Positions 3-15,903 of a DNA stretch of 26,875 nt are shown one piece after another (within the stretch, counting starts at the first letter, position 1; every line of letters begins with the position of its first letter). This stretch comes from Patescibacteria group bacterium (GTDB taxonomy: Bacteria; Patescibacteriota; Minisyncoccia; Minisyncoccales; UBA10102), in contig JAHIUP010000043.1 in the NCBI GenBank assembly GCA_018816925.1, positions 1 to 26,875 on the forward strand, read 5' to 3'. The position numbers and the translations under genes are program-made. The notes below the pieces were generated by a model. That model saw nothing but the letters and a program-made list of their open reading frames with translations. It was not told the DNA's origin and ran no database searches.

Positions 3-1358
3 AAGCCGGAGGATCTTGCAGCCATATTAATCAACACTTACGGCATGACGCAAGCGAATCTTGATGCCGTATGCGACCGCACCCTTCCTTCCGCTGAAAA
101 AGCCGGGGTGTGGCTGGATGAAGGATTGACTGCTTTCTCAAATCCAATTGAAGCCCCTGACATTGATATAACCGGAATGAGTCTGGTTCCATTTGGAGAA
201 ACCGCACTCCCAAAACTTCCGACAGTACTATCAAAAGATGTGCGTCCTATTTTGATTCCTGCAAAAGCGAGAGAAACTATCACGGTAAAAGAATTATGGT
301 ATTGCCGTGGGGGGAACATCGTTTGGAAGGATTCGCAAGGTGTAGTATTGGAAACGATAGATACTAGAGACGGTTCTTGCGTAAGAGATGTGCAATTTAA
401 TGCTCCAAAAGACGATACGTATCAATTATCCTGCAGTGATCAATGCAACATGGATGTAGTGTCACACGGCGCTTCCTACCTGGTTAAGCCGGGAATGAAT
501 AAAAGATTGCTTGGCGCAGGCAGCATGTACTTCTATGTTCCGGAGGGCAGTGCAGGTCTTATTATAGGAGCTAAGCCATATGCAGACACCTATATAACAA
601 CAGTTAAGCTTTACGACGACACGGACTCCTTACAGCTTAATAAATCGTGTACCGGGGGAGGAGCATGCGAATGGGGAATGACAAATCCCTCTCCCGGAGT
701 CTGGAGAGTTGATTATGGAGGAACGTATGGCGGTGAGGGGACATATCTTTGGCTCCGCGGCGTGCCTCCATTAATGTGGCACGATCCCCAGTATCTCCTT
801 ATTCCATCTTCTTCTCCCCCTCCTTCCCTCCCTATTTCTTCTGGGGGCGGCTTTTCCCTTTTCTCTTTACCCAGACACTACCTCTTCCAAGACGAAGACA
901 ACACCTTGGAGGTGCAGGGAGCCAGCTTTGACACCGCAAAGACCTTTACCATTAAGTTTTTCCAAGCAGAAGTAGAGCAAAAGAGTATTTCAGTAATTCC
1001 TGCGGACTCCGCTACTCTCCGTACCACTCTCTCTGTTGCAGACCTCTCCTCTTTGTCTCCGGGCCTTTACGACATGGCAGTGGAGAGTACTTTAGACAGC
1101 ACTACTAAGACCTATTCCACCAAGATAGCCATAACCAAGAGAGGAGACCTCTGGAGCCAAGGAGCCACTGACTCTTCTTTGCAAAAGAGAGACGGCAAGG
1201 TAGATATCTACGACGTCTCAAGAATGCTCTCCAAGTGGGGAAGCACCCAAGCAACAGATCTCCAGGAGGCAGACATTAACGCAGGCCCCAACAACGTCTC
1301 TGCCAACAAGATAGACCTGTATGACGCCAACAAGATGATGGCGAATTGGACCGGGTAG
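3..1358 (+). CDS. Extracellular protein with Ig-like domain and C-terminal dockerin-like module; 5'-truncated by the window edge
   Basis: The frame is open from base 3 (KPEDLAAILINTYG-M), so the 437-aa ORF is a partial. It has a P/S/G linker (PSSSPPPSLPISSGGG), a beta-rich domain, then a duplicated EF-hand-like pair DGKVDIYDVSRMLSKW and ADIN...NKIDLYDANKMMANW at 1140-1355. Confidence 0.7.
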   Translation, partial: KPEDLAAILINTYGMTQANLDAVCDRTLPSAEKAGVWLDEGLTAFSNPIEAPDIDITGMSLVPFGETALPKLPTVLSKDVRPILIPAKARETITVKELWYCRGGNIVWKDSQGVVLETIDTRDGSCVRDVQFNAPKDDTYQLSCSDQCNMDVVSHGASYLVKPGMNKRLLGAGSMYFYVPEGSAGLIIGAKPYADTYITTVKLYDDTDSLQLNKSCTGGGACEWGMTNPSPGVWRVDYGGTYGGEGTYLWLRGVPPLMWHDPQYLLIPSSSPPPSLPISSGGGFSLFSLPRHYLFQDEDNTLEVQGASFDTAKTFTIKFFQAEVEQKSISVIPADSATLRTTLSVADLSSLSPGLYDMAVESTLDSTTKTYSTKIAITKRGDLWSQGATDSSLQKRDGKVDIYDVSRMLSKWGSTQATDLQEADINAGPNNVSANKIDLYDANKMMANWTG

Positions 1359-1370
1359 CGTGCCACAGCG

Positions 1371-1376
1371 TATAAT
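1371..1376 (+). promoter_or_regulatory. -10 box TATAAT 8 nt before the ATG at 1385
   Basis: Exact TATAAT; no Shine-Dalgarno motif between it and the ATG. Confidence 0.55.
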
Positions 1377-1384
1377 ATATACAT

Positions 1385-1981
1385 ATGAAATTCCTCTCTT
1401 TTCTTCTCCTTATAGTCGTAGGATTTTTCTTCTTCCTGGGAGCTAAAGCTCAAGAGCCGACTACTCGCCTGTACCTTGTTCCCGCAGAGACCACGATGGA
1501 TGTAGATGAGGAGCAAGTGGTTAAAGTAATACTTGAGACAGAGGAGTCAATCACTTCTTTAAAGGCATACCTTACCTTTGACCCTTCGGTGCTTGCGGTG
1601 GCAAGCATTGAGGCAGTAAAGGAAACATTTTCTTATTGGTGGGAGAGTGAGGATGGAGGAGGGATGGTGAAGCTCCAGGCCTCCGAGCCCTCTCCCGGAG
1701 TGAGCGGAACCACAGAGATTGCACGATTCACCATGAAGGGTATCAGAGAAGGCGCGTCTTCTCTTTCTTTCCACGATTCTTCCCTTGCTCTTTCCAAGAC
1801 AGATGAAAACCTGCTGGATGTGGAGCAGCTGTTTCTTGGATCTGTAACGATAGAAAGAGGACAGACACCAGGAATCTCTATTCTTCCAAGTGCCATTGTC
1901 GTGTTCTCCCTACTCACCCTCGTCTTTTTTGGTGCCTTTATTCTGTTCAAAGCGCGGTTTGCGAAAAAAGAAGGAATATAG
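1385..1981 (+). CDS. Cohesin-domain protein with signal peptide and C-terminal transmembrane anchor
   Basis: Signal peptide ending AKA-QE; cohesin-like pattern (LYLVP...VKVILET...ITSLKAYLTFDPSVL...GEIARFTMK...LSFHDSSL); hydrophobic helix followed by basic tail KARFAKK. Confidence 0.75.
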   Translation: MKFLSFLLLIVVGFFFFLGAKAQEPTTRLYLVPAETTMDVDEEQVVKVILETEESITSLKAYLTFDPSVLAVASIEAVKETFSYWWESEDGGGMVKLQASEPSPGVSGTTEIARFTMKGIREGASSLSFHDSSLALSKTDENLLDVEQLFLGSVTIERGQTPGISILPSAIVVFSLLTLVFFGAFILFKARFAKKEGI

Positions 1982-1996
1982 TAAGGTGGGAGCATC

Positions 1997-3394
1997 GTGA
2001 AGCAAGGCGCTTTTCTCTACTGGTTTGGAATTGGAGCGGTGCTCCTTGGAATAGGGAGTGTGTTTTTTGTCGTCCAGCAAGGATACGGGGGACCTTTCTG
2101 GAGAGAATATCTTAGGCCTGTTCTTTTTCTCTCACAAGTAATTCCTGGGCCTAACGAGGCCGTACTTTACTCTTACCCTTCAAGCGGGAGTTTTCAGACA
2201 GGGCAGAATGTTGCGGTGGAGCTGCGCATGTCAGCTTCCACGAACGTCACCTCCCTCAAGGCCTATCTTACATTTGACCCCGCGGTGCTTCAGGGCTCTT
2301 CTATTAATCACTCTACCTCTGTCTTTACCACTTGGTGGGAGGAGACCTTTGATAACGCAACCGGCGTGGTGAAGCTCCAGGCCTCCGAGCCCTCTCCTGG
2401 AGTGAGCGGAAACAATCATCTTGTGGCGGTTATCAATTTTCAGGCGACCGGAGATGGCACAAGCCAGGTTGCTTACGACCTTAGTTCTCTTGCGCTTAAT
2501 TCAGCAGACCAGGATGTTTTGAATATTATGAGTTCAGAAGGCGGGAGTTTTCTAGTGGACGGAACCGCACCCTTTCGTTCCAACGCCTCTCCCACCGGAG
2601 AGCTTTCTTTGGGTACTACTTCCGCCACTCTTTCTCTTACTACCAATGAAGCGGCAACCTGTAGGTATGACACGAGCTCGGGAACGGCGTATGCCTCCAT
2701 GGCGACTACGTTCATTACTACCGGGAGTACCGCTCATTCCAGCGGAGTGACAGGGCTCGCGAATGGGAACACGTATTCTTACTATATGAAATGCCAGGAC
2801 ACTATAGGCAACGCGAATGCCACGGATCTTCTTGTAGAGTTTTCTGTTGCTTCTGCTCCCGGAAGCGAGGACACCTCACCGCCGGTCCGCTCAAATGCCT
2901 CTCCGGAAGGAATCTTGATCGCGGGTACGGATTCTGTAACTCTTTCCCTCACCACCGATGAGGCGGCAACCTGCAAATACGATACAGAGACCTCTACTCT
3001 CTACGACGCCATGGGCGCCGTCTTCTCTACTACGGGCGGTACTTCGCATTCCAGTCAGGCGGCTGGGCTTGCGAGCGGTACTTCCTACGCGTACGCGGTC
3101 CGGTGCGCAGACGCTTCGGGCAACAAAAATACCACTGATCTCTTAATTGAGTTTAGTGTTGCTTCTGCGGATGGCGGAGGCGGTGGTGGAGGAGGAGGTG
3201 GTGGAGGAGGCGGCGGCACCCCACTCCCTACCTACGCAAAAGGCGACTTGAATAAAGATGGAAAGGTGAACATTTTTGATTTAAGTATTCTTCTTTCCAA
3301 CTGGGGGAAGAATGTGTCCGCGTACGAATTGGGCGGAGACACTACCATTAATATATTTGACTTGAGCGTAATGCTTTCTAACTGGACTGGGTAG
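1997..3394 (+). CDS. Adaptor-like surface protein: N-terminal TM/signal, cohesin, two ~100-aa Ig/FN3-like repeats, Gly15 linker, dockerin
   Basis: Cohesin paralog of 1385..1981 (TSLKAYLTFDP and VKLQASEPSPGVSG shared); two repeats RSNASP...LSLTT.EAATC.YD...C.D..GN.N.TDLL.EFSVASA; dockerin KGDLNKDGKVNIFDLSILLSNW...DTTINIFDLSVMLSNWTG at 3239-3391. Confidence 0.8.
   Translation: MKQGAFLYWFGIGAVLLGIGSVFFVVQQGYGGPFWREYLRPVLFLSQVIPGPNEAVLYSYPSSGSFQTGQNVAVELRMSASTNVTSLKAYLTFDPAVLQGSSINHSTSVFTTWWEETFDNATGVVKLQASEPSPGVSGNNHLVAVINFQATGDGTSQVAYDLSSLALNSADQDVLNIMSSEGGSFLVDGTAPFRSNASPTGELSLGTTSATLSLTTNEAATCRYDTSSGTAYASMATTFITTGSTAHSSGVTGLANGNTYSYYMKCQDTIGNANATDLLVEFSVASAPGSEDTSPPVRSNASPEGILIAGTDSVTLSLTTDEAATCKYDTETSTLYDAMGAVFSTTGGTSHSSQAAGLASGTSYAYAVRCADASGNKNTTDLLIEFSVASADGGGGGGGGGGGGGGGTPLPTYAKGDLNKDGKVNIFDLSILLSNWGKNVSAYELGGDTTINIFDLSVMLSNWTG
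3173..3217 (+). repeat. Poly-glycine (15 Gly) linker
   Basis: 15 consecutive GGN codons with mixed GGC/GGA/GGT usage, just before the dockerin. Confidence 0.9.
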
Positions 3395-3453
3395 TGGGGG
3401 TTGTGCGCATTAGAAGGCCTTGGTATTATAAGTGAACATACATTTAGATTTCT

Positions 3454-4242
3454 ATGCGTATTTTCTCTTTTTGTTTTTCTTCCCTGATTTTATTAGCTGT
3501 TTTTTTGGGTGTTGAAGCGCGGGAAGCTTATGCCCAGGACGCGGTACTACGGCTCCTTCCTGCCATTGAGACCCATAATGTAGGGGAGGTAGTATCTGTG
3601 ACGATTCAAGTGGATACGGGGGGAAATGGCGTAAACGCGGTTGCCGCGTATTTTTCTTACCCCTCTTTGCTTCTGGAGGCCTTGGAAATAGATAAGAAGG
3701 ATTCCGTAATGACACTCTTCGCGGAAGAGAAGTTCTTGAATGGAGAGGTAAGGATTTCAGGCGGAAAGCCAACTCCTGGATTTTCCGGCACGCACACAAT
3801 TGCTTCCGTGAAGTTTCGTGCTAAGGCAGGGGGAACTGCTTCTTTGCAATTCCAGGAGAACTCTGCGGTAGTGCGGGATTCAGACAACCAAGATATTATT
3901 AATCTTAGTCAATCTCAAGGGGCAACCTATACGATTACGGTTCAGCCCGTACCGGAGCCGACTCCAGAACCTTTGCCACAACCGGAACCAGAATCCCAGC
4001 CAGAGCCCGAACCAGAATCCCAGCCAGAGCCCGAACCAGAGCCCGAATCTGGAGTCCAACCAGAACAAGAACTAGAACCCCAGCCGCAGTCCCAGACAGA
4101 ATCTGAAGCAGAGCAAGAACAGGAGTCCGAACGGGAAAACAACCTTCTCTTTCTTGGCTGGCTTGTTTTCAACGGGGCTTTGGCGCTGGTAGTGCTTAGC
4201 GGAATTATTTGGATTTTTGCGCTTCGTCAGAAGACCCCTTGA
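3454..4242 (+). CDS. Cohesin-domain protein with Pro/Glu/Gln-rich stalk and C-terminal transmembrane anchor
   Basis: Signal peptide (AYA-QD); cohesin-like domain ([28 protein letters not shown]...[18 protein letters not shown]); PEPE stalk; C-terminal hydrophobic helix then RQK. Confidence 0.8.
3985..4032 (+). repeat. Perfect 24-bp tandem duplication encoding EPESQPEP x2
   Basis: GAACCAGAATCCCAGCCAGAGCCC at 3985-4008 and 4009-4032, followed by degenerate partial copies. Confidence 0.9.
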
Positions 4243-4266
4243 CAGGATTTTCTACACGTATATAAT
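4239..4266 (+). promoter_or_regulatory. sigma70-type promoter for rpoBC
   Basis: TTGACA (4239-4244), 16-nt spacer, TATAAT (4261-4266); the -35 overlaps the upstream TGA stop. Confidence 0.75.
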
Positions 4267-4418
4267 GGGGAGGAGTTGGTTTTTTGTTTCCATATTTCAT
4301 CTTTCTAACCCGTCCACCTTTTGAGTCCCGGGTTTTTACATAAGCAGAGTGCCGTCTAGGGTTTCTCCCTTCGAGGGTTTCGAGAAGGGAACTTTTGTTT
4401 GCCGCCCCATCTTTCCTC

Positions 4419-7400
4419 ATGGCAACTTCCCTTCCCCTTAAACACTTTGGCAAGTCTGGCGTCCATCTGGACTTTCCCTACCTTCTTGCGGTCCAGCAGG
4501 ATACCTGGAATACTTTTTGGAAGCAGTACTTCAAGGAGCTTCTTGAGGAGCTTTCGCCTATACGTGATTATACGAAGAAGGAGTTTGAGCTATGGTTCAC
4601 GGATTTTAAACTCGGAGAGCCGAGCTATTCTTCTGATGTGGGAGCGAAAGAGAACGATGATTCTTTTGCGGCGCCCCTCCGCGTGCGTTGCCGGCTTCAT
4701 AATCTTAAGACCGGGGAGGTAAAAGAGCAGGAGATCTATCTTGCTGATTTTCCCCTCATGACCGAGCGCGGCACGTTTATCGTGAATGGGGTGGAGCGTG
4801 TCGCAATCTCCCAGCTCATCCGTTCTCCGGGTGCGTTTTTTACCGCCCAGAATGTGCGCCGAAAGCGCTTATTTGGAGCGAAGCTTATTCCCAACCGGGG
4901 TGCATGGCTTGAATTCGACACAGAATTCTCGGGAGTCCTCGTGGCACGCATCGACCGGAAGCGTAAGGCCCCTGTCTCCACTTTACTCCGGGCCTTTGGA
5001 TTAACCGAAGAGGATATCCGTAAGCAGTTGTGCGAGCAGGATACCGGGGAAATAAAGTGTGTTGAGGAGACCCTGCGAAAGGACACGGCAAAGACCCAGG
5101 AAGAGGCCCTCGTGGAAATCTACCAGCGTCTTCGGCCAGGGGATTACGTGACCCCGGAAAACGCAAAGGAGCTCATTTGGAACATGTTTTTCTCCTTTGA
5201 ACGTTATGACCTTTCCCGTGTGGGAAGGTGGAAGACCTGGCAGCGTCTGCCCGAACTCAAGCCAAAGACGGAGCGTGAGATTTCCCTGGAAGACCGCGTA
5301 CTCAAGACGGAGGACGTGATAGAAATTCTACGGGAGATTCTCCGGCTCAATAATACCCCGGGAGCCGAGCCCGACCAGATCGATCACCTTGGTAACCGGA
5401 GGGTGCGTTCGTTTGGAGAATTCCTCCAGAACCGTCTTCGAGTGGGTTTCATGCGCATGGAACGTATTGTGAAGGATCGCATGTCCACCCTGGACCCTGC
5501 GACCATTACCCCCGCACAGCTCGTGAATCCAAGACCGGTCATGGCAGTGATAAAGGAGTTCTACACATCCTCCCAGCTTACCCAGTTTATGGATAATGAG
5601 AACCCGTTAGCCGAACTTGAACATAAGCGCAGGGTGTCGGCCACGGGCCCCGGAGGGCTCACGAGGGAGCGCGCAGGGTTTGAGGTTCGGGATGTGCAAC
5701 CCTCCCACTATGGAAGGATTTGTCCCATTCAGACGCCCGAAGGTCCGAATATCGGACTGGTGGGGCACCTTGCCACGTATGCGAAGATAAACCCGTACGG
5801 ATTCGTGGAGACCCCCTACTTCAGAGTGAAGGACGGGAAGGTTACCGATGAGCTCGTTTCTTTTACCGCCTACGAGGAGGAGCAGTATGTAATCGCGCAT
5901 GCGGGTACGCCGCTTGATGAGCACAGACGCCTCATTCCCGAGAAGGTGGCGGTCCGTATGTATGGAGAGCCGGGGGTTGCTACTCGCAGTCAAGTGGAAT
6001 ACATTGATGTGTCTCCCGAGCAGGCAATCTCCGTTGCCACGGCCCTCATTCCTTTTCTGCGCCATGACGATGCGAACCGCGCCCTTATGGGTTCGAATAT
6101 GCAGCGCCAGGCGGTTCCTTTGATAAAGCCCCAGAGCCCGCTCGTGGGTACGGGACTGGAAGAGCAAGTGGCAAAGGATTCAGGGCTTACCGTGCTGGCC
6201 GCAGAAGACGGCGTAGTACAGGAGGCCGATGGCCAGCATGTGAGCGTTAAGGCACAGAACCCCAAGAGCAAGAACCCGAGCAGGAACTACGTCCTGAAGA
6301 CCTTTGTGCGCACGAACCAGTATACCTCTTTTCATCAGAGGCCCGTGGTTCATAAGGGCCAGAAGGTGAAGAAAGGAGAGGTATTGGCAGACGGCGGGGC
6401 GATTGACCAAGGCAGATTGGCTCTCGGAACAAACCTGCTTGTTGCATTCCTTCCCTGGAGGGGAGGGAACTATGAGGATGCCATCGTGTTGTCGGAGCGT
6501 CTCGTGAAAGAAGACGCGTACACTTCCATTCACATTGAGGATTTCAGTTGCGATGTGCGGGAGACCAAACTGGGTCCTGAAGTGACGACAGCAGACATTC
6601 CTAACGTGGGAGAAGAGAAGCTTAAGGACCTCGACGAGGAGGGAATCGTGCGCATTGGCGCCGAGGTGGGGCCCAACGACATTCTCGTGGGTAAGATTTC
6701 CCCTAAGGGAGAAGCGGAGCTCACTTCCGAGGAGCGCCTCCTGCGAGCAATTTTCGGTGAAAAAGCAAGGGACGTGAAGGATACCTCTCTCTTGATGCCC
6801 CACGGCAAGCGCGGACGCGTGGTGTCGGTGCGTGTGTTCTTAAGGAGCGAGGGCCATAGGCTGGAGCCCGGGATTATCAAGCGTATTCATGTGGAGGTGG
6901 CGGAGATTCGCAAGATTCAGCCGGGCGATAAATTGGCAGGGCGCCACGGGAATAAGGGAGTGGTATCTTTGGTGCTCCCCGAGGAGGAAATGCCTTTCAT
7001 GGAAGATGGTACTCCCGTGGATGTGGTGCTGAATCCTTTGGGGGTGGCTTCCCGTATGAATATTGGACAGATTCTGGAAACGCATCTGGGCTGGGCCGCA
7101 AAGAAGCTTGGGTATATGGCGGTCTCTCCTGGATTGGCAGGGGCCACGGAAGAGGAGATACGGACGGAACTCGTGAAGGCGGGTCTTCCTTCGGACGGCA
7201 AGGTCCAGCTGTTCGACGGAAAAGATGGAGAGCCCTTCCCCCAGAATGTGACGGTAGGGTACATCTATATGATGAAGCTCATCCATATGGTGGCGGACAA
7301 AATCCATATGCGCTCCATAGGCCCCTACTCCTTAATTACCCAGCAGCCCCTTGGAGGGAAAGCGCAATTTGGAGGCCAGAGGTTTGGAGAAATGGAGGTA

Positions 7401-7670
7401 TGGGCGTTGGAGGGGTATGGAGCCGCGCATACGCTTCAGGAGATGCTTACGATAAAATCCGATGACGTGCCGGGAAGGGCAAGCGCGTATGAGTCAATTC
7501 TTCGCGGTCAGCCCATTCAGACCCCTAACCTTCCCGCCTCCTTCAACCTTTTGCTCAATGAGCTTCGTTCCCTGGCGCTCAACGTGGAGGTAAAGGGAAA
7601 GGTAGAAGGGGAAATTCGCAAGGCCGGCAGTGAGCTTTTAAAGAAAGAGGAACGAGAACAATCTTCCTAA
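4419..7670 (+). CDS. rpoB: DNA-directed RNA polymerase subunit beta
   Basis: Motifs FIVNGVERV, SSQLTQFMD..NPLAELEHKRR, GDKLAGRHGNKG, GGQRFGEME. ATG 4419 is preferred over the TTG at 4395. Confidence 0.99.
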   Translation: MATSLPLKHFGKSGVHLDFPYLLAVQQDTWNTFWKQYFKELLEELSPIRDYTKKEFELWFTDFKLGEPSYSSDVGAKENDDSFAAPLRVRCRLHNLKTGEVKEQEIYLADFPLMTERGTFIVNGVERVAISQLIRSPGAFFTAQNVRRKRLFGAKLIPNRGAWLEFDTEFSGVLVARIDRKRKAPVSTLLRAFGLTEEDIRKQLCEQDTGEIKCVEETLRKDTAKTQEEALVEIYQRLRPGDYVTPENAKELIWNMFFSFERYDLSRVGRWKTWQRLPELKPKTEREISLEDRVLKTEDVIEILREILRLNNTPGAEPDQIDHLGNRRVRSFGEFLQNRLRVGFMRMERIVKDRMSTLDPATITPAQLVNPRPVMAVIKEFYTSSQLTQFMDNENPLAELEHKRRVSATGPGGLTRERAGFEVRDVQPSHYGRICPIQTPEGPNIGLVGHLATYAKINPYGFVETPYFRVKDGKVTDELVSFTAYEEEQYVIAHAGTPLDEHRRLIPEKVAVRMYGEPGVATRSQVEYIDVSPEQAISVATALIPFLRHDDANRALMGSNMQRQAVPLIKPQSPLVGTGLEEQVAKDSGLTVLAAEDGVVQEADGQHVSVKAQNPKSKNPSRNYVLKTFVRTNQYTSFHQRPVVHKGQKVKKGEVLADGGAIDQGRLALGTNLLVAFLPWRGGNYEDAIVLSERLVKEDAYTSIHIEDFSCDVRETKLGPEVTTADIPNVGEEKLKDLDEEGIVRIGAEVGPNDILVGKISPKGEAELTSEERLLRAIFGEKARDVKDTSLLMPHGKRGRVVSVRVFLRSEGHRLEPGIIKRIHVEVAEIRKIQPGDKLAGRHGNKGVVSLVLPEEEMPFMEDGTPVDVVLNPLGVASRMNIGQILETHLGWAAKKLGYMAVSPGLAGATEEEIRTELVKAGLPSDGKVQLFDGKDGEPFPQNVTVGYIYMMKLIHMVADKIHMRSIGPYSLITQQPLGGKAQFGGQRFGEMEVWALEGYGAAHTLQEMLTIKSDDVPGRASAYESILRGQPIQTPNLPASFNLLLNELRSLALNVEVKGKVEGEIRKAGSELLKKEEREQSS

Positions 7671-13503: not shown

Positions 13504-15903
13504 ATGGTTAAGAAAAAGCGCGAAAAAGAGGAACCGGCAGATCTCCAGGAGGCAATTGCGGAGATCAAGCAGAGATTTGGAGAGGGAGCCATCATGCGTC
13601 TTTCGGAAGCCCGTGCCATGGACGTGGAGACGGTTTCCACGGGTTCCATTTCTCTCGATATGGCCCTAGGAGTAGGAGGTCTGCCCAAGGGAAGGGTTAT
13701 TGAGATTTACGGTCCCGAGGCGGCTGGGAAATGTGTGCGTTCTGATACGATAGTATTTTCGGAGCTCGGCATGACTCCTATCTCCGTGTTTGGGAACCCG
13801 CAAATCGCTGGATTCCAACAGAGAGAGATCTTTGTACACTCCGAGCATAGCTATGAAAAGACAAGCCATTTTTACAACGGCGGCATTAAGCCGACTATAA
13901 AGGTAAAAACAAGCTATGGATATGAGATAGAAGGTACGCCCAATCATCGAATCCGCGTACTTGACGCAGAGGGAAAGTATCTTTGGCGGCGGCTGGATAA
14001 CGTTCAAGTAGGTGACTTCGTTCCAATCCAAAGAGGCCAAGATTATTTCGGAAAAGGGGTGGACCTTTCTGATTTTGAGGAGCGCGTATGGAAGGGAACG
14101 ACCTCTCGCTTCAATACCTCAAAGAAGGATTTCAAGAATTTTCGAATTACCAAGGAGCTCGCAAAACTGACGGGTTTCATGGTAGGAGACGGCACGTGTA
14201 CCAGCACGGGTCTTAACAAAAACGATATTCAAATTACGCTTGCAGACGACGAAGCCCAGAGGGAGTTAGATGGTATTTGCATGAAAATATTCGCGGAGAC
14301 CCCAAAGATTACAAATGATAAAAGAACTAAGGATACGCGCCGTGCGGTTATTCACAACGGGAAAGCGCGGGCGTTTCTCGCCTATGCGGGAGTTAATTTT
14401 TCTTCCGCAGGGGACAAGGAGGTCCCTTGGTCAATTCTTTGTTCTCCAAAGTCTATTGTTGCAAGCTTTTTAAGTGCGCTCTTTGAGTGTGATGGGAGCG
14501 CAGGGAAGAGAAGAATCGAATACGCTTCTAAGTCGGAAAAGCTTGTGGCGCAACTTCAAATTATACTATTAAATTTTGGTATCGTAAGTAGGCGGATTGT
14601 ACGACACAATACGATATACGATAGAGATTATTACTATCTTTATATCGAGGGACAGAAAGATAGGGATGTTTTTGCGCGAGACATTGGATTCTTGAGTACG
14701 CGAAAGCAAGGTACGCTGCTTGCCGGGATTCAAAGAAGAAAAATCTACAAGACCAATCGAGATACGATTCCCCATCTTAACGAGAAACTGGGTCGCTTTC
14801 TTGTCGCATACCGTAAGCTAGTTAGGGAAACCAATCGAGAGGATTGGAAGTTAATAACGGATTACGTTCCTCAAGGAGTCTCTCCTCACCAGCTCACCTA
14901 TCATCAATTAGAGCGAATTCTACGGCATTTTTCAGATGGTGAGCATCTTCCCGAGTATCAGGAACTAGAAAATCTCTACGAACTAGAATTCTTCTGGGAT
15001 CGCGTTGCCACGACCGAAAACTCAATGGCACACGTCTTTGATTTTACCGTTCCTTCAAACGCAACGTTTATTGGGAATGGATTCGTTAATCACAATACGA
15101 CCGTTGCGCTTCACGCGCTCGCGGAAGTCCAAAAGAACGGAGGTACGGCCGCCTTCGTGGATGCGGAGCACGCCTTAGACCCCGATTATGCCAAGCGCAT
15201 CGGGGTGGACGTGCAGCAGCTTCTCATCTCTCAACCGGATTCCGGAGAGCAGGCGCTCCAGATTGTGGAGACCCTTGTGCGTTCAGGACAAGTGGATATG
15301 ATTGTTATAGATTCGGTAGCCGCCCTCACCCCTCGCAATGAAATTGCGGGAGAAATGGGGGAGTTCCAGATAGGGCTTCAGGCCCGCCTCATGTCGTCTG
15401 CCCTGCGCAAGCTCTCCGCCATCGTGGCAAAAACCGGCACTACGGTCATTTTCCTCAACCAGATACGTATGAAAATAGGCGTGCTCTATGGCAATCCCGA
15501 AACTACTCCGGGAGGCCTCGCCTTGAAGTTCTATTCCTCTGTGCGCATAGAGCTTCGGAGGGCGGCGCAGATAAAGCATGGGGAGGAAATTGTTGGGAGC
15601 AGGGTCAAGGCAAAAATCGTGAAGAACAAGGTGGCTCCTCCTTTCAAGACCTGCGAGTTTGATATCTACTACAACGAGGGTATTTCTTCTACCGCCGACC
15701 TTCTAAATGCGGGGCTAAGGTATGAACTATTGAGCAGGGCGGGAAGCTGGCTTCAGTACGGGTCAACAAAGCTCGGGCTGGGCGTGGAAGCCGCCCGCAC
15801 ATATCTTAAAGAGCATCCAGACGAGGCAGAAAGGCTCCGGAAGGAGATCCTTGAGCAGGGAGGTAAACCCGAAGAGAAAGACAAGGAACCTAAGCAGAAC
15901 TAA
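13504..15903 (+). CDS. recA: Recombinase RecA precursor containing an intein (799 aa; extein about 344 aa)
   Basis: N-extein [30 protein letters not shown]; C-extein TTVALHA...[10 protein letters not shown]...VIDSVAAL...[14 protein letters not shown]...KNKVAPPF. Confidence 0.98.
13732..15096 (+). mobile_element. Class 1 intein with LAGLIDADG homing endonuclease (455 aa), inserted in the RecA Walker A motif
   Basis: Starts with Cys (CVRSDT); block B GTPNH; LAGLIDADG-like motifs LTGFMVGDG and LSALFECDG; block F/G VFDFTV...FVNHN; +1 residue is Thr. The DNA is visibly AT-richer than the flanking exteins. Confidence 0.95.

Follow-up and report, generated by a model that had tools for sequence, protein, structure and literature searches.

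A conserved cohesin-dockerin cassette with predicted membrane anchors, probably displaying secreted enzymes on a Wildermuthbacteria-like bacterium

At the start of a 26,875-bp contig from a Patescibacteria group bacterium (contig JAHIUP010000043.1 of assembly GCA_018816925.1), four neighbouring genes encode a set of cohesin and dockerin proteins: two anchors, an adaptor and a cargo protein. The analysed stretch, called the window here, is this entire contig, and the genome bin to which it belongs has a size of 607 kb in 72 contigs at 93.5% completeness. We consider it probable that the four genes represent a conserved, membrane-anchored, non-cellulosomal cohesin-dockerin system, by which large secreted enzymes for polysaccharide and phosphate scavenging are displayed on an ultra-small, Wildermuthbacteria-like groundwater bacterium of the candidate phyla radiation (CPR). 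The four-gene arrangement did not arise by chance, since the same order is present in several other genomes. Two plug-and-socket pairs, docA-cohA and docB-cohB, named after the dockerin and cohesin types involved, are inferred from the co-occurrence of the module types, from the adjacency of their genes and from one modelled complex.

The four genes are closely set on the plus strand at 3-4242, with intergenic gaps of 26, 15 and 59 nucleotides (nt), and all of them were found where a first-pass annotation of the window had placed four adjacent same-strand genes. The proteins encoded by these open reading frames (ORFs) are the following:

3..1358, + strand: ORF1, dockerin-tailed cargo fragment of 451 residues, open at the 5' side at the contig end, with the N-terminus lost
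1385..1981, + strand: ORF2, short anchor composed of a signal peptide, a cohesin and a transmembrane (TM) helix, 198 residues
1997..3394, + strand: ORF3, adaptor composed of a TM helix, a cohesin, two fibronectin type III (FN3) repeats, a Gly15 linker and a dockerin, 465 residues, GTG start
3454..4242, + strand: ORF4, long-stalk anchor composed of a signal peptide, a cohesin and a TM helix, 262 residues

The membrane topology of both anchors was derived from hydropathy. ORF2 has a hydrophobic N-terminus (residues 1-24) with a signal peptide at 1-22, putatively cleaved between AKA and Q, followed by a cohesin of the type designated cohA at about 27-160 and by a C-terminal TM segment at 161-193 with a basic tail, so that the spacer between cohesin and membrane is nearly nil. 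In ORF4, the signal peptide is followed by a cohesin of the second type, cohB (28-165), a stalk (166-228) and the TM segment (229-259). The stalk comprises 63 residues, among them 21 Glu, 17 Pro and 10 Gln, and a search of NCBIfam returned low-complexity matches to this stalk and no others. A short and a long Pro/Glu stalk had been described before; the long one of ORF4 was recovered, whereas ORF2 has practically no stalk. ORF3 starts with a hydrophobic helix (2-29) and carries two repeats of 96 residues each (194-284 and 298-388), which had been taken for Ig-like; the number stands, while the repeats are FN3-like. Its AlphaFold2 (AF2) model, for which 49 homologues were present in the input, has a bead-on-a-string layout with a mean predicted local distance difference test (pLDDT) score of 88.9 and a predicted template modelling score of 0.53. 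The modules of ORF1 and ORF3 on which the analysis is centred are located as follows:

855..1136, + strand: X-module of ORF1 (residues 285-378), beta-sandwich, pLDDT ~88-95
1140..1355, + strand: docA of ORF1 (residues 380-451), atypical dockerin, ending in NWTG
2147..2566, + strand: cohA cohesin of ORF3 (residues 51-190), beta-sandwich at 55-187 in the AF2 model
3173..3217, + strand: linker of ORF3 (residues 393-407), exactly 15 Gly, disordered in the model
3227..3391, + strand: docB of ORF3 (residues 411-465), near-canonical duplicated dockerin with two helices, pLDDT 82-96

For the ORF3 cohesin, the Pfam profile Cohesin (PF00963, gathering score 24.1 bits) was matched with 30.1 bits, and with 33.1 bits in a six-frame search. 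The fold search, which covered the ORF3 cohesin, showed that residues 51-190 form the nine-stranded jelly-roll beta-sandwich of a cohesin: the best 44 PDB entries were all cohesins, with type I ranked before type II and type II before type III, and the closest match was CaCohA2 (6kgc, 6kgd) with a Z score of 16.4 and a root mean square deviation of 2.1-2.2 A over 132-133 residues. Non-cellulosomal cohesins from Archaeoglobus fulgidus and Clostridium perfringens were also among the matches. The cohesins of ORF2 and ORF4 resemble the one of ORF3 with E-values of 1.2e-23 and 6.5e-11, respectively, and homologues clear the Pfam threshold, like the first protein of locus L011 with 37.4 bits and the one of L036 with 30.6 bits. 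The ORF4-type cohesin is widespread, with 3545 related cluster representatives in a library of 1.8 billion proteins. In this family, metagenomic proteins with up to nine cohesin copies were identified (P0165, 2276 residues, nine stretches; P0152, 916 residues, six stretches), and thus genuine multi-cohesin scaffoldins exist among the relatives. Homologues of the short cohA anchor were found which end in PG_binding_1 and not in a TM segment (L034 8761-9585, minus strand, 36.6 bits; L036 179-976, plus strand, 38.3 bits). Judged from this domain, they may represent an alternative, wall-bound anchoring of the cohA socket.

A canonical dockerin consists of two segments of ~22 residues, each with a 12-residue calcium loop (D-x-N/D-x-D-G-x-x-x-x-x-D) and a helix. 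The first calcium loop of docB, DLNKDGKVNIFD, is canonical. Against Dockerin_1 (PF00404, gathering score 22.9 bits), docB scores 17.5 bits in hmmscan, 21.6 bits in the six-frame search and 23.9 bits when neighbouring stretches are included. A docB profile built from the adaptor family matches the solved dockerins 2yik, 4fl4_A, 2jnk, 2y3n_B and 2ccl_B with E-values from 1e-5 to 8e-3. By the fold and profile evidence together, a chance similarity or mis-called domains were rejected, and the cohesin and dockerin modules called in the first pass are real. In an alignment of docB from eight adaptors, one position in each half covaries; both are Cys in five proteins and hydrophobic in three of the eight (the listed pairs are L/Y, F/Y, Y/Y and L/F), with L/Y in ORF3. 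This suggests that the pair could serve as an optional disulfide clasp joining the two calcium loops.

docA does not fit the canonical two-loop pattern. Both helices are retained, and both loops carry insertions, of the form GD...[6-14 aa]...RDGKVD in the first and DINAGPxNxSxxKID in the second. A C-terminal dockerin had been assigned to ORF1 in the first-pass annotation; it is present, although not of the ordinary type. As also noted there, both dockerin proteins, ORF1 and ORF3, share the same C-terminal end, NWTG followed by the stop codon. The docA relatives score 20.2-22.2 bits against Dockerin_1. Among 15 aligned cargo proteins, 18 columns of docA are invariant and the mean column identity is 66%. 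The X-module is always located directly N-terminal of docA and is kept on otherwise unrelated cargo proteins. By analogy with the family, both dockerins are expected to depend on calcium.

To annotate fetched loci, hidden Markov models of the module subtypes were built in-house. The set which recurs consists of a cargo protein with X-module and docA, a short cohA anchor of ~190-207 residues, an adaptor and a long cohB anchor, with the adaptor composed of cohA, two to four FN3 repeats, a Gly/Pro linker and docB. The complete cassette was found in the same order at L008/L031, again directly upstream of rpoB, and at L032 and L033. At two loci located at contig ends (L030 and L034), no cargo gene is visible beside the rest of the cassette, and L013 holds the adaptor and the long anchor only, just after comM-yraN. 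Genomes of the same family thus carry the cassette, two of them named Candidatus Wildermuthbacteria, and both the division into anchors, adaptor and cargo and the synteny for which a survey had been proposed were borne out. In L011, from Parcubacteria Gr01-1014_30, the adaptor and a small neighbouring protein both have a third type of cohesin, while docB and cohB are unchanged. This cohesin, adaptor and anchor trio (L011 1-5100) directly follows type IV pilus genes, coding for a PilC-like T2SSF protein, pilins and PilM.

Of the 151 genomes sampled from the order, 53 contain cohesin-like genes, mostly in tandem clusters. Strict matches to docB and to cohB occur in the identical nine of 36 family genomes, and the two genes are adjacent in all nine. 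Of the eight genomes which contain cohA, seven also have docA, in several cases bordering on a cohesin cluster, and all strong docA matches in the sample of the order were from cohA genomes.

The docA-cohA pair was modelled as a complex of ORF2 residues 25-160, two Ca2+ ions and ORF1 residues 283-451 (X-module and docA), using separate alignments. A median score of 0.77 was obtained (0.86, 0.51 and 0.77 in the single runs), compared to 0.51 for the best control; in the calibration of the tool, this mark was attained by 58 of the 80 solved complexes and by 2 of the 110 mismatched pairs, counts which apply only roughly here. The runs agreed in at least 97% of the contacts, and the pLDDT of the partners was at least 93. 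A confident dockerin-cohesin interface, one of the checks proposed in the first pass, was thereby predicted for one pair, and the model supports binding of docA to cohA without showing it. On ORF2, the predicted contacts are T57/S58/K60, Y84/W86, Q98/S100-S103/G105 and L134-N142, which by alignment to the ORF3 model correspond to strands 3, 5, 6 and 8 and thus to the face canonically bound by dockerins. On the docA side, residues 405-451 are involved, chiefly the last helix (439-449) and in part the first helix. No residue before position 405 of ORF1, and hence none of the X-module, is part of the confident interface. The columns of the modelled interface are among the most conserved in both the cohA and the docA families.

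A further hint comes from the DNA sequences of the two cohA genes:

1665..1709 (ORF2) versus 2367-2411 (ORF3), + strand: 45-nt near-identical tract, 43 of 45 nt identical

This tract codes for (M/V)VKLQASEPSPGVSG, the strand-6 segment, a strand with its loop for which contact with the dockerin is predicted, whereas the DNA identity of the two cohesins is 46% elsewhere and their protein identity 39%. The pattern resembles that expected from gene conversion by which a pair of sockets stays adapted to a single plug.

Over 437 residues, ORF1 aligns with 39% identity to residues 559-995 of P0123, a 997-residue DUF4838 protein from Candidatus Nealsonbacteria, and it is 43% identical to P0126, a DUF4838 protein of 979 residues; the DUF4838 domains (PF16126) of P0126 and P0123 score 73.8 and 52.1 bits. 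The contig ends at the equivalent of residue 559 of P0123, past the DUF4838 domain of that protein. ORF1 has no visible enzyme domain because it is a contig-end fragment, and going by these homologues the missing N-terminal half is most likely a glycosidase domain of the type found in glycoside hydrolase (GH) families GH163 and GH185. DUF4838 has been described as the domain responsible for catalysis in the GH163 endo-hexosaminidase BT1035 and in the GH185 6-sulfo-GlcNAcase, and as distantly related to GH20 (PMC10570127). The AF2 model of ORF1 (mean pLDDT 78.8) contains helices at 1-45, beta-sandwich domains at ~61-268, the X-module and docA. A fold search with this model gave generic beta-sandwich matches (alpha-2-macroglobulin, GH2 accessory domains) and nothing specific for 61-268.

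The same break point is present in L012, a contig from another assembly which is 99.5% identical to the window. In the same samples, contigs diverge at 1271-1351 towards a locus where two DUF4838-docA genes lie in tandem, and the assemblies probably break within ORF1 because the dockerin tail is repeated. One such contig, L041/L040, is from the same sample as the 99.5% identical copy of the window and contains two complete tandem DUF4838-X-docA genes (P0126 and P0137), with a stretch of 86 nt that is 95% identical to the dockerin tail of ORF1. It was considered as an extension of the window and rejected, since only the 86-nt dockerin stretch is in common and its fourth gene is LamG-like; the contig is either an unbinned part of the source organism or derives from a co-resident relative.

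Tails of X-module and docA with 41-75% identity were identified on a range of other proteins:

1597 residues: purple-acid-phosphatase / BACON / beta-helix / malectin protein
2052-2151 residues: proteins with a GH79-like match, CBM6/35 and hexosaminidase C-terminal domains
P0135: GH5 protein, 90.9 bits
362 residues: GH16 protein, 83.5 bits
Heparinase II/III-like and Pel9A-like (pectate-lyase-like) beta-helix proteins
In addition, with the same kind of tail, P0123, P0126 and P0127: DUF4838 proteins

In the first-pass annotation, no cellulase was seen and a non-cellulolytic scaffold was proposed. This picture has to be revised: ORF1 is most likely the tail of a DUF4838 protein, and the same tail is attached to GH5, GH16, lyase-like and phosphatase proteins. 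In P0125 (969 residues), an ORF1-related DUF4838 body is followed by InlB B-repeats and, at the C-terminus, a membrane helix, which replace the X-module and dockerin. Read from their domain order, this replacement and that of the TM segment by PG_binding_1 both fit a role in surface attachment.

In the proposed mechanism, all four proteins would be exported by the Sec system. ORF2 and ORF4 would be held in the membrane by their C-terminal helices with the cohesin outside, directly at the membrane for ORF2 and at the tip of the ~60-residue Pro/Glu stalk for ORF4. The cargo ORF1, a predicted GH163/GH185-like, glycosidase-like DUF4838 protein, would plug its X-module and docA into the cohA socket of either ORF2 or ORF3, and the docB of ORF3, carried on two FN3 spacers and the Gly15 tether, would plug into the cohB of ORF4. 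Two tiers would be the result, with cargo at the membrane via ORF2 and cargo further out, by some tens of nanometres, via ORF4 and then ORF3. The likely purpose would be the scavenging of sugar and phosphate from polymers, possibly those of a host envelope, with the host step as a conjecture. A much bolder version, in which a two-tier, membrane-rooted 'glycanosome' is common to the family and its Patescibacteria relatives, a new insertion-bearing X-docA subtype swaps hydrolases, and an episymbiont erodes or harvests the envelope polysaccharides of its host, is regarded as rather doubtful.

Several points weigh against enzyme display by the inferred pairings. In the Pfam search which had been proposed as a check, the ORF3 cohesin was over its threshold, whereas those of ORF2 (21.1-22.0 bits) and ORF4 (22.0-23.2 bits) were slightly under 24.1 bits and the ORF1 dockerin, with 13.1 bits, was well below 22.9 bits. 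In the model of ORF1 without a partner, docA has a pLDDT of only 42-57. The second calcium loop of docB, ELGGDTTINIFD, is partly degenerate in ORF3, while homologues have the canonical form (DLNGDG...). The lowest of the three runs for the complex equals the best control, both at 0.51; moreover, the score expresses the confidence of the model, and a pass may partly reflect memory of solved cohesin-dockerin complexes. The genomes compared are related and non-independent, and the co-occurrence is therefore a consistent pattern and not a statistic. The catalytic half of ORF1 was not found in the window or in the genome bin. Finally, the L011 homologue of the adaptor has a clean cleavage site between VKA and Q, and ORF3 is without such a site. 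ORF3 may thus stay anchored in the membrane by its N-terminus, which would make the picture of a hanging adaptor wrong; with the helix retained, ORF3 and ORF4 would instead form a membrane-to-membrane arch.

Among the alternatives, the one with the largest share of the remaining probability, though still unlikely, is a device primarily for adhesion, whose displayed lectin-type adhesins would fix the epibiont to a host or to particles, enzymatic activity being subordinate or gone. Malectin, F5/8 type C, CBM6/35, laminin-G and BACON modules on the cargo proteins speak for it, as do the requirement of a cultivated Saccharibacterium for a dockerin-domain envelope protein, with speculated targeting of host glycans (PMC10633639), and the proposal that cohesin-dockerin proteins take part in the cell contacts of anaerobic methanotrophic (ANME) archaea (PMC9012536). 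However, most cargo proteins match catalytic families well over the thresholds (GH16, GH5, Metallophos and DUF4838), which would make them enzymes if activity has been retained, and binding modules are normal components of such enzymes. Attachment to a host, as suggested in the first-pass annotation, is possible, many cargo proteins having lectin-like modules. We give a lower probability, and regard as improbable, a self-assembling filament, in which the dockerin of an adaptor binds its own cohesin or that of another adaptor and head-to-tail polymers extend from the anchors. Such chaining had been considered earlier; ORF3 does bear a cohesin and a dockerin together, and a precedent exists in Ruminococcus bromii, where the dockerin of Amy4 recognizes the cohesin of the same protein and Amy4 autoaggregates (PMC4611034). 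It is disfavoured by the strict co-occurrence of docB with cohB of the stalk anchor, adjacent in nine of nine genomes, and not with the adaptor's own cohesin type, cohA, which instead co-occurs with docA. In L011, the adaptor cohesin has changed its type with docB and cohB left unchanged, cohA and cohB differ systematically at the residues of the modelled interface, and every adaptor combines a single cohesin with a hydrophobic N-terminus.

The least probable explanation, to which we give very little weight, is that the modules are relatives in fold only, beta-sandwich domains and calcium-binding tails which confer stability on secreted proteins and do not pair. It would accommodate the three of five module calls that stay below the Pfam gathering scores, and an atypical docA which is modelled poorly without a partner. 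It is difficult to reconcile with the strict co-occurrence and adjacency of the module types, with a docA so highly conserved (at the mean column identity given above) on otherwise unrelated cargo proteins, with the location of the most conserved residues on the modelled interface, and with the putative gene-conversion tract at that interface. Thus, the display of secreted enzymes through two cohesin-dockerin specificities is the preferred reading.

Downstream of the cassette, the following features were identified:

4239..4266, + strand: TTGACA-16-TATAAT, perfect match to the sigma-70 consensus, lying across the ORF4 stop codon and 129 nt upstream of the rpoB start (pattern match only)
4395-7670: rpoB, downstream of ORF4, TTG start, with rpoC next

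The sigma-70 match, a candidate promoter, is the likely 3' limit of the cassette transcription unit, and transcription of the cassette is probably separate from that of rpoBC because the perfect match overlaps the ORF4 stop codon. Further downstream, the GC content dips to 0.44 at 14001-15000 of the window (flanks ~0.54), within an ORF of 799 residues at 13504-15903. DNA of the source organism was encountered again in metagenomes which several studies had obtained from groundwater and biofilm, seen as contigs, which report presence and not transcripts. The source genome also contains a second, different cohesin-dockerin set on contig C27 (L006 3-866, 868-1794 and 1686-2348), comprising a Big_6 protein with a terminal dockerin that ends in FWTG before the stop codon, followed by two anchored cohesin-like proteins without recognition by Pfam. 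Relatives of this set (L037-L039) have a dockerin protein ending in YWWTG, followed by arrays of four to six anchored cohesins.

CPR or Patescibacteria account for a large part of bacterial diversity; their genomes are tiny, and they are believed to live at the expense of other cells. How they acquire sugar and phosphate and how their surface is organized is mostly obscure, and a cassette for mounting enzymes would be a concrete and testable part of the answer; the predicted pairings are explicit, and the modules are small and soluble. If the 'glycanosome' reading were true, it would give a molecular handle on the feeding of these genome-reduced bacteria. For the cellulosome field, the cassette adds a TM-anchored single-cohesin architecture and an insertion-bearing dockerin subtype, which could widen the set of orthogonal pairs.

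Earlier reports on such modules in this part of the bacterial tree are few. For Southlakia epibionticum, the dockerin-domain protein SEML1_0315 was reported to be essential (PMC10633639), and in Candidatus Shapirobacterales cohesin and dockerin proteins are expressed (bioRxiv 10.1101/2021.08.21.457207); the authors of both papers speculate on the targeting of glycans. Unlike the present analysis, these papers contain single-domain annotations, without a cassette, a wiring or a cargo repertoire. A literature search on cohesin and dockerin in Parcubacteria returned nothing, one on Patescibacteria and the candidate phyla radiation gave passing mentions of cohesins or dockerins only, with no cassette, wiring or cargo set, and one on Wildermuthbacteria found nothing relevant. 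In a preprint on the CPR Pam pilus, cohesins are unmentioned.

Among characterized systems, the cellulosome scaffoldins ScaC/ScaE of R. flavefaciens, ScaA/ScaB of Acetivibrio cellulolyticus and CipA with SdbA/OlpB of C. thermocellum were compared. Like these, the cassette contains cohesins of the same fold, the ORF3 cohesin matching type I, II and III cohesins with Z scores of 12-16, and has C-terminal duplicated dockerins both on enzymes and on a cohesin-bearing adaptor. Two plug-and-socket specificities likewise give a hierarchy of cargo, adaptor and anchor, predicted for the cassette, and the X-module ahead of the dockerin recalls the X-dockerin dyads found among the solved matches (5m0y, 4u3s and 4iu3). 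However, the cassette is not a cellulosome sensu stricto: its proteins have single cohesins, there is no multi-cohesin primary scaffoldin, and neither the carbohydrate-binding module CBM3 nor a cellulase is present in the window. Anchoring is by a TM helix, or by PG_binding_1 in relatives, and not by SLH (S-layer homology) modules or sortase; the X-dockerin dyad is located on the enzymes and not on a scaffoldin, and its calcium loops carry insertions. In place of a cellulase set, the cargo comprises DUF4838, GH16, lyase-like and phosphatase proteins, and the host is a CPR bacterium with a genome of 0.6 Mb.

The amylosome of R. bromii is also non-cellulolytic, organizes glycoside hydrolases and uses few cohesins; its Amy4, with cohesin and dockerin in one protein, and Sca2, a single-cohesin cell anchor, both have counterparts in the cassette (PMC4611034). 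There, binding has been measured and Amy4 binds to itself, whereas the cassette adaptor is non-catalytic and the co-occurrence of its modules opposes self-binding. Anchoring is of the sortase type in R. bromii, a Firmicute, in contrast to the membrane helices of a CPR bacterium. In C. perfringens, large multi-modular glycan-degrading enzymes aimed at the glycans of another organism are paired in a non-cellulosomal manner, as proposed here. The C. perfringens cohesins are located on the secreted enzymes themselves, whereas those of the cassette are on dedicated anchors and on the adaptor. Structures are available for the GH84C cohesin with FN3 (2w1n), for the GH33 cohesin (2vo8) and for the NagH dockerin (2jnk/2ozn), and in GH84C the FN3 domain follows the cohesin, as in ORF3. 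A. fulgidus belongs to an unrelated lineage, and to our knowledge neither an enzyme cargo repertoire nor a two-specificity hierarchy is known for it. Like the source organism, it is non-cellulolytic and contains cohesin and dockerin modules, and the ORF3 cohesin matches the A. fulgidus fold (2xdh) with a Z score of 14.8; its proteins are referred to as non-cellulosomal (Bayer 1999 and Haimovitz 2008, as cited in PMC9012536). The closest analogues are therefore the R. bromii amylosome, the C. perfringens glycosidase complexes and the adaptor and anchoring scaffoldins of ruminococci, and the cassette, a pared-down cellulosome relative in this reading, would work like a cellulosome or amylosome, yet lacks the features by which cellulosomes are defined.

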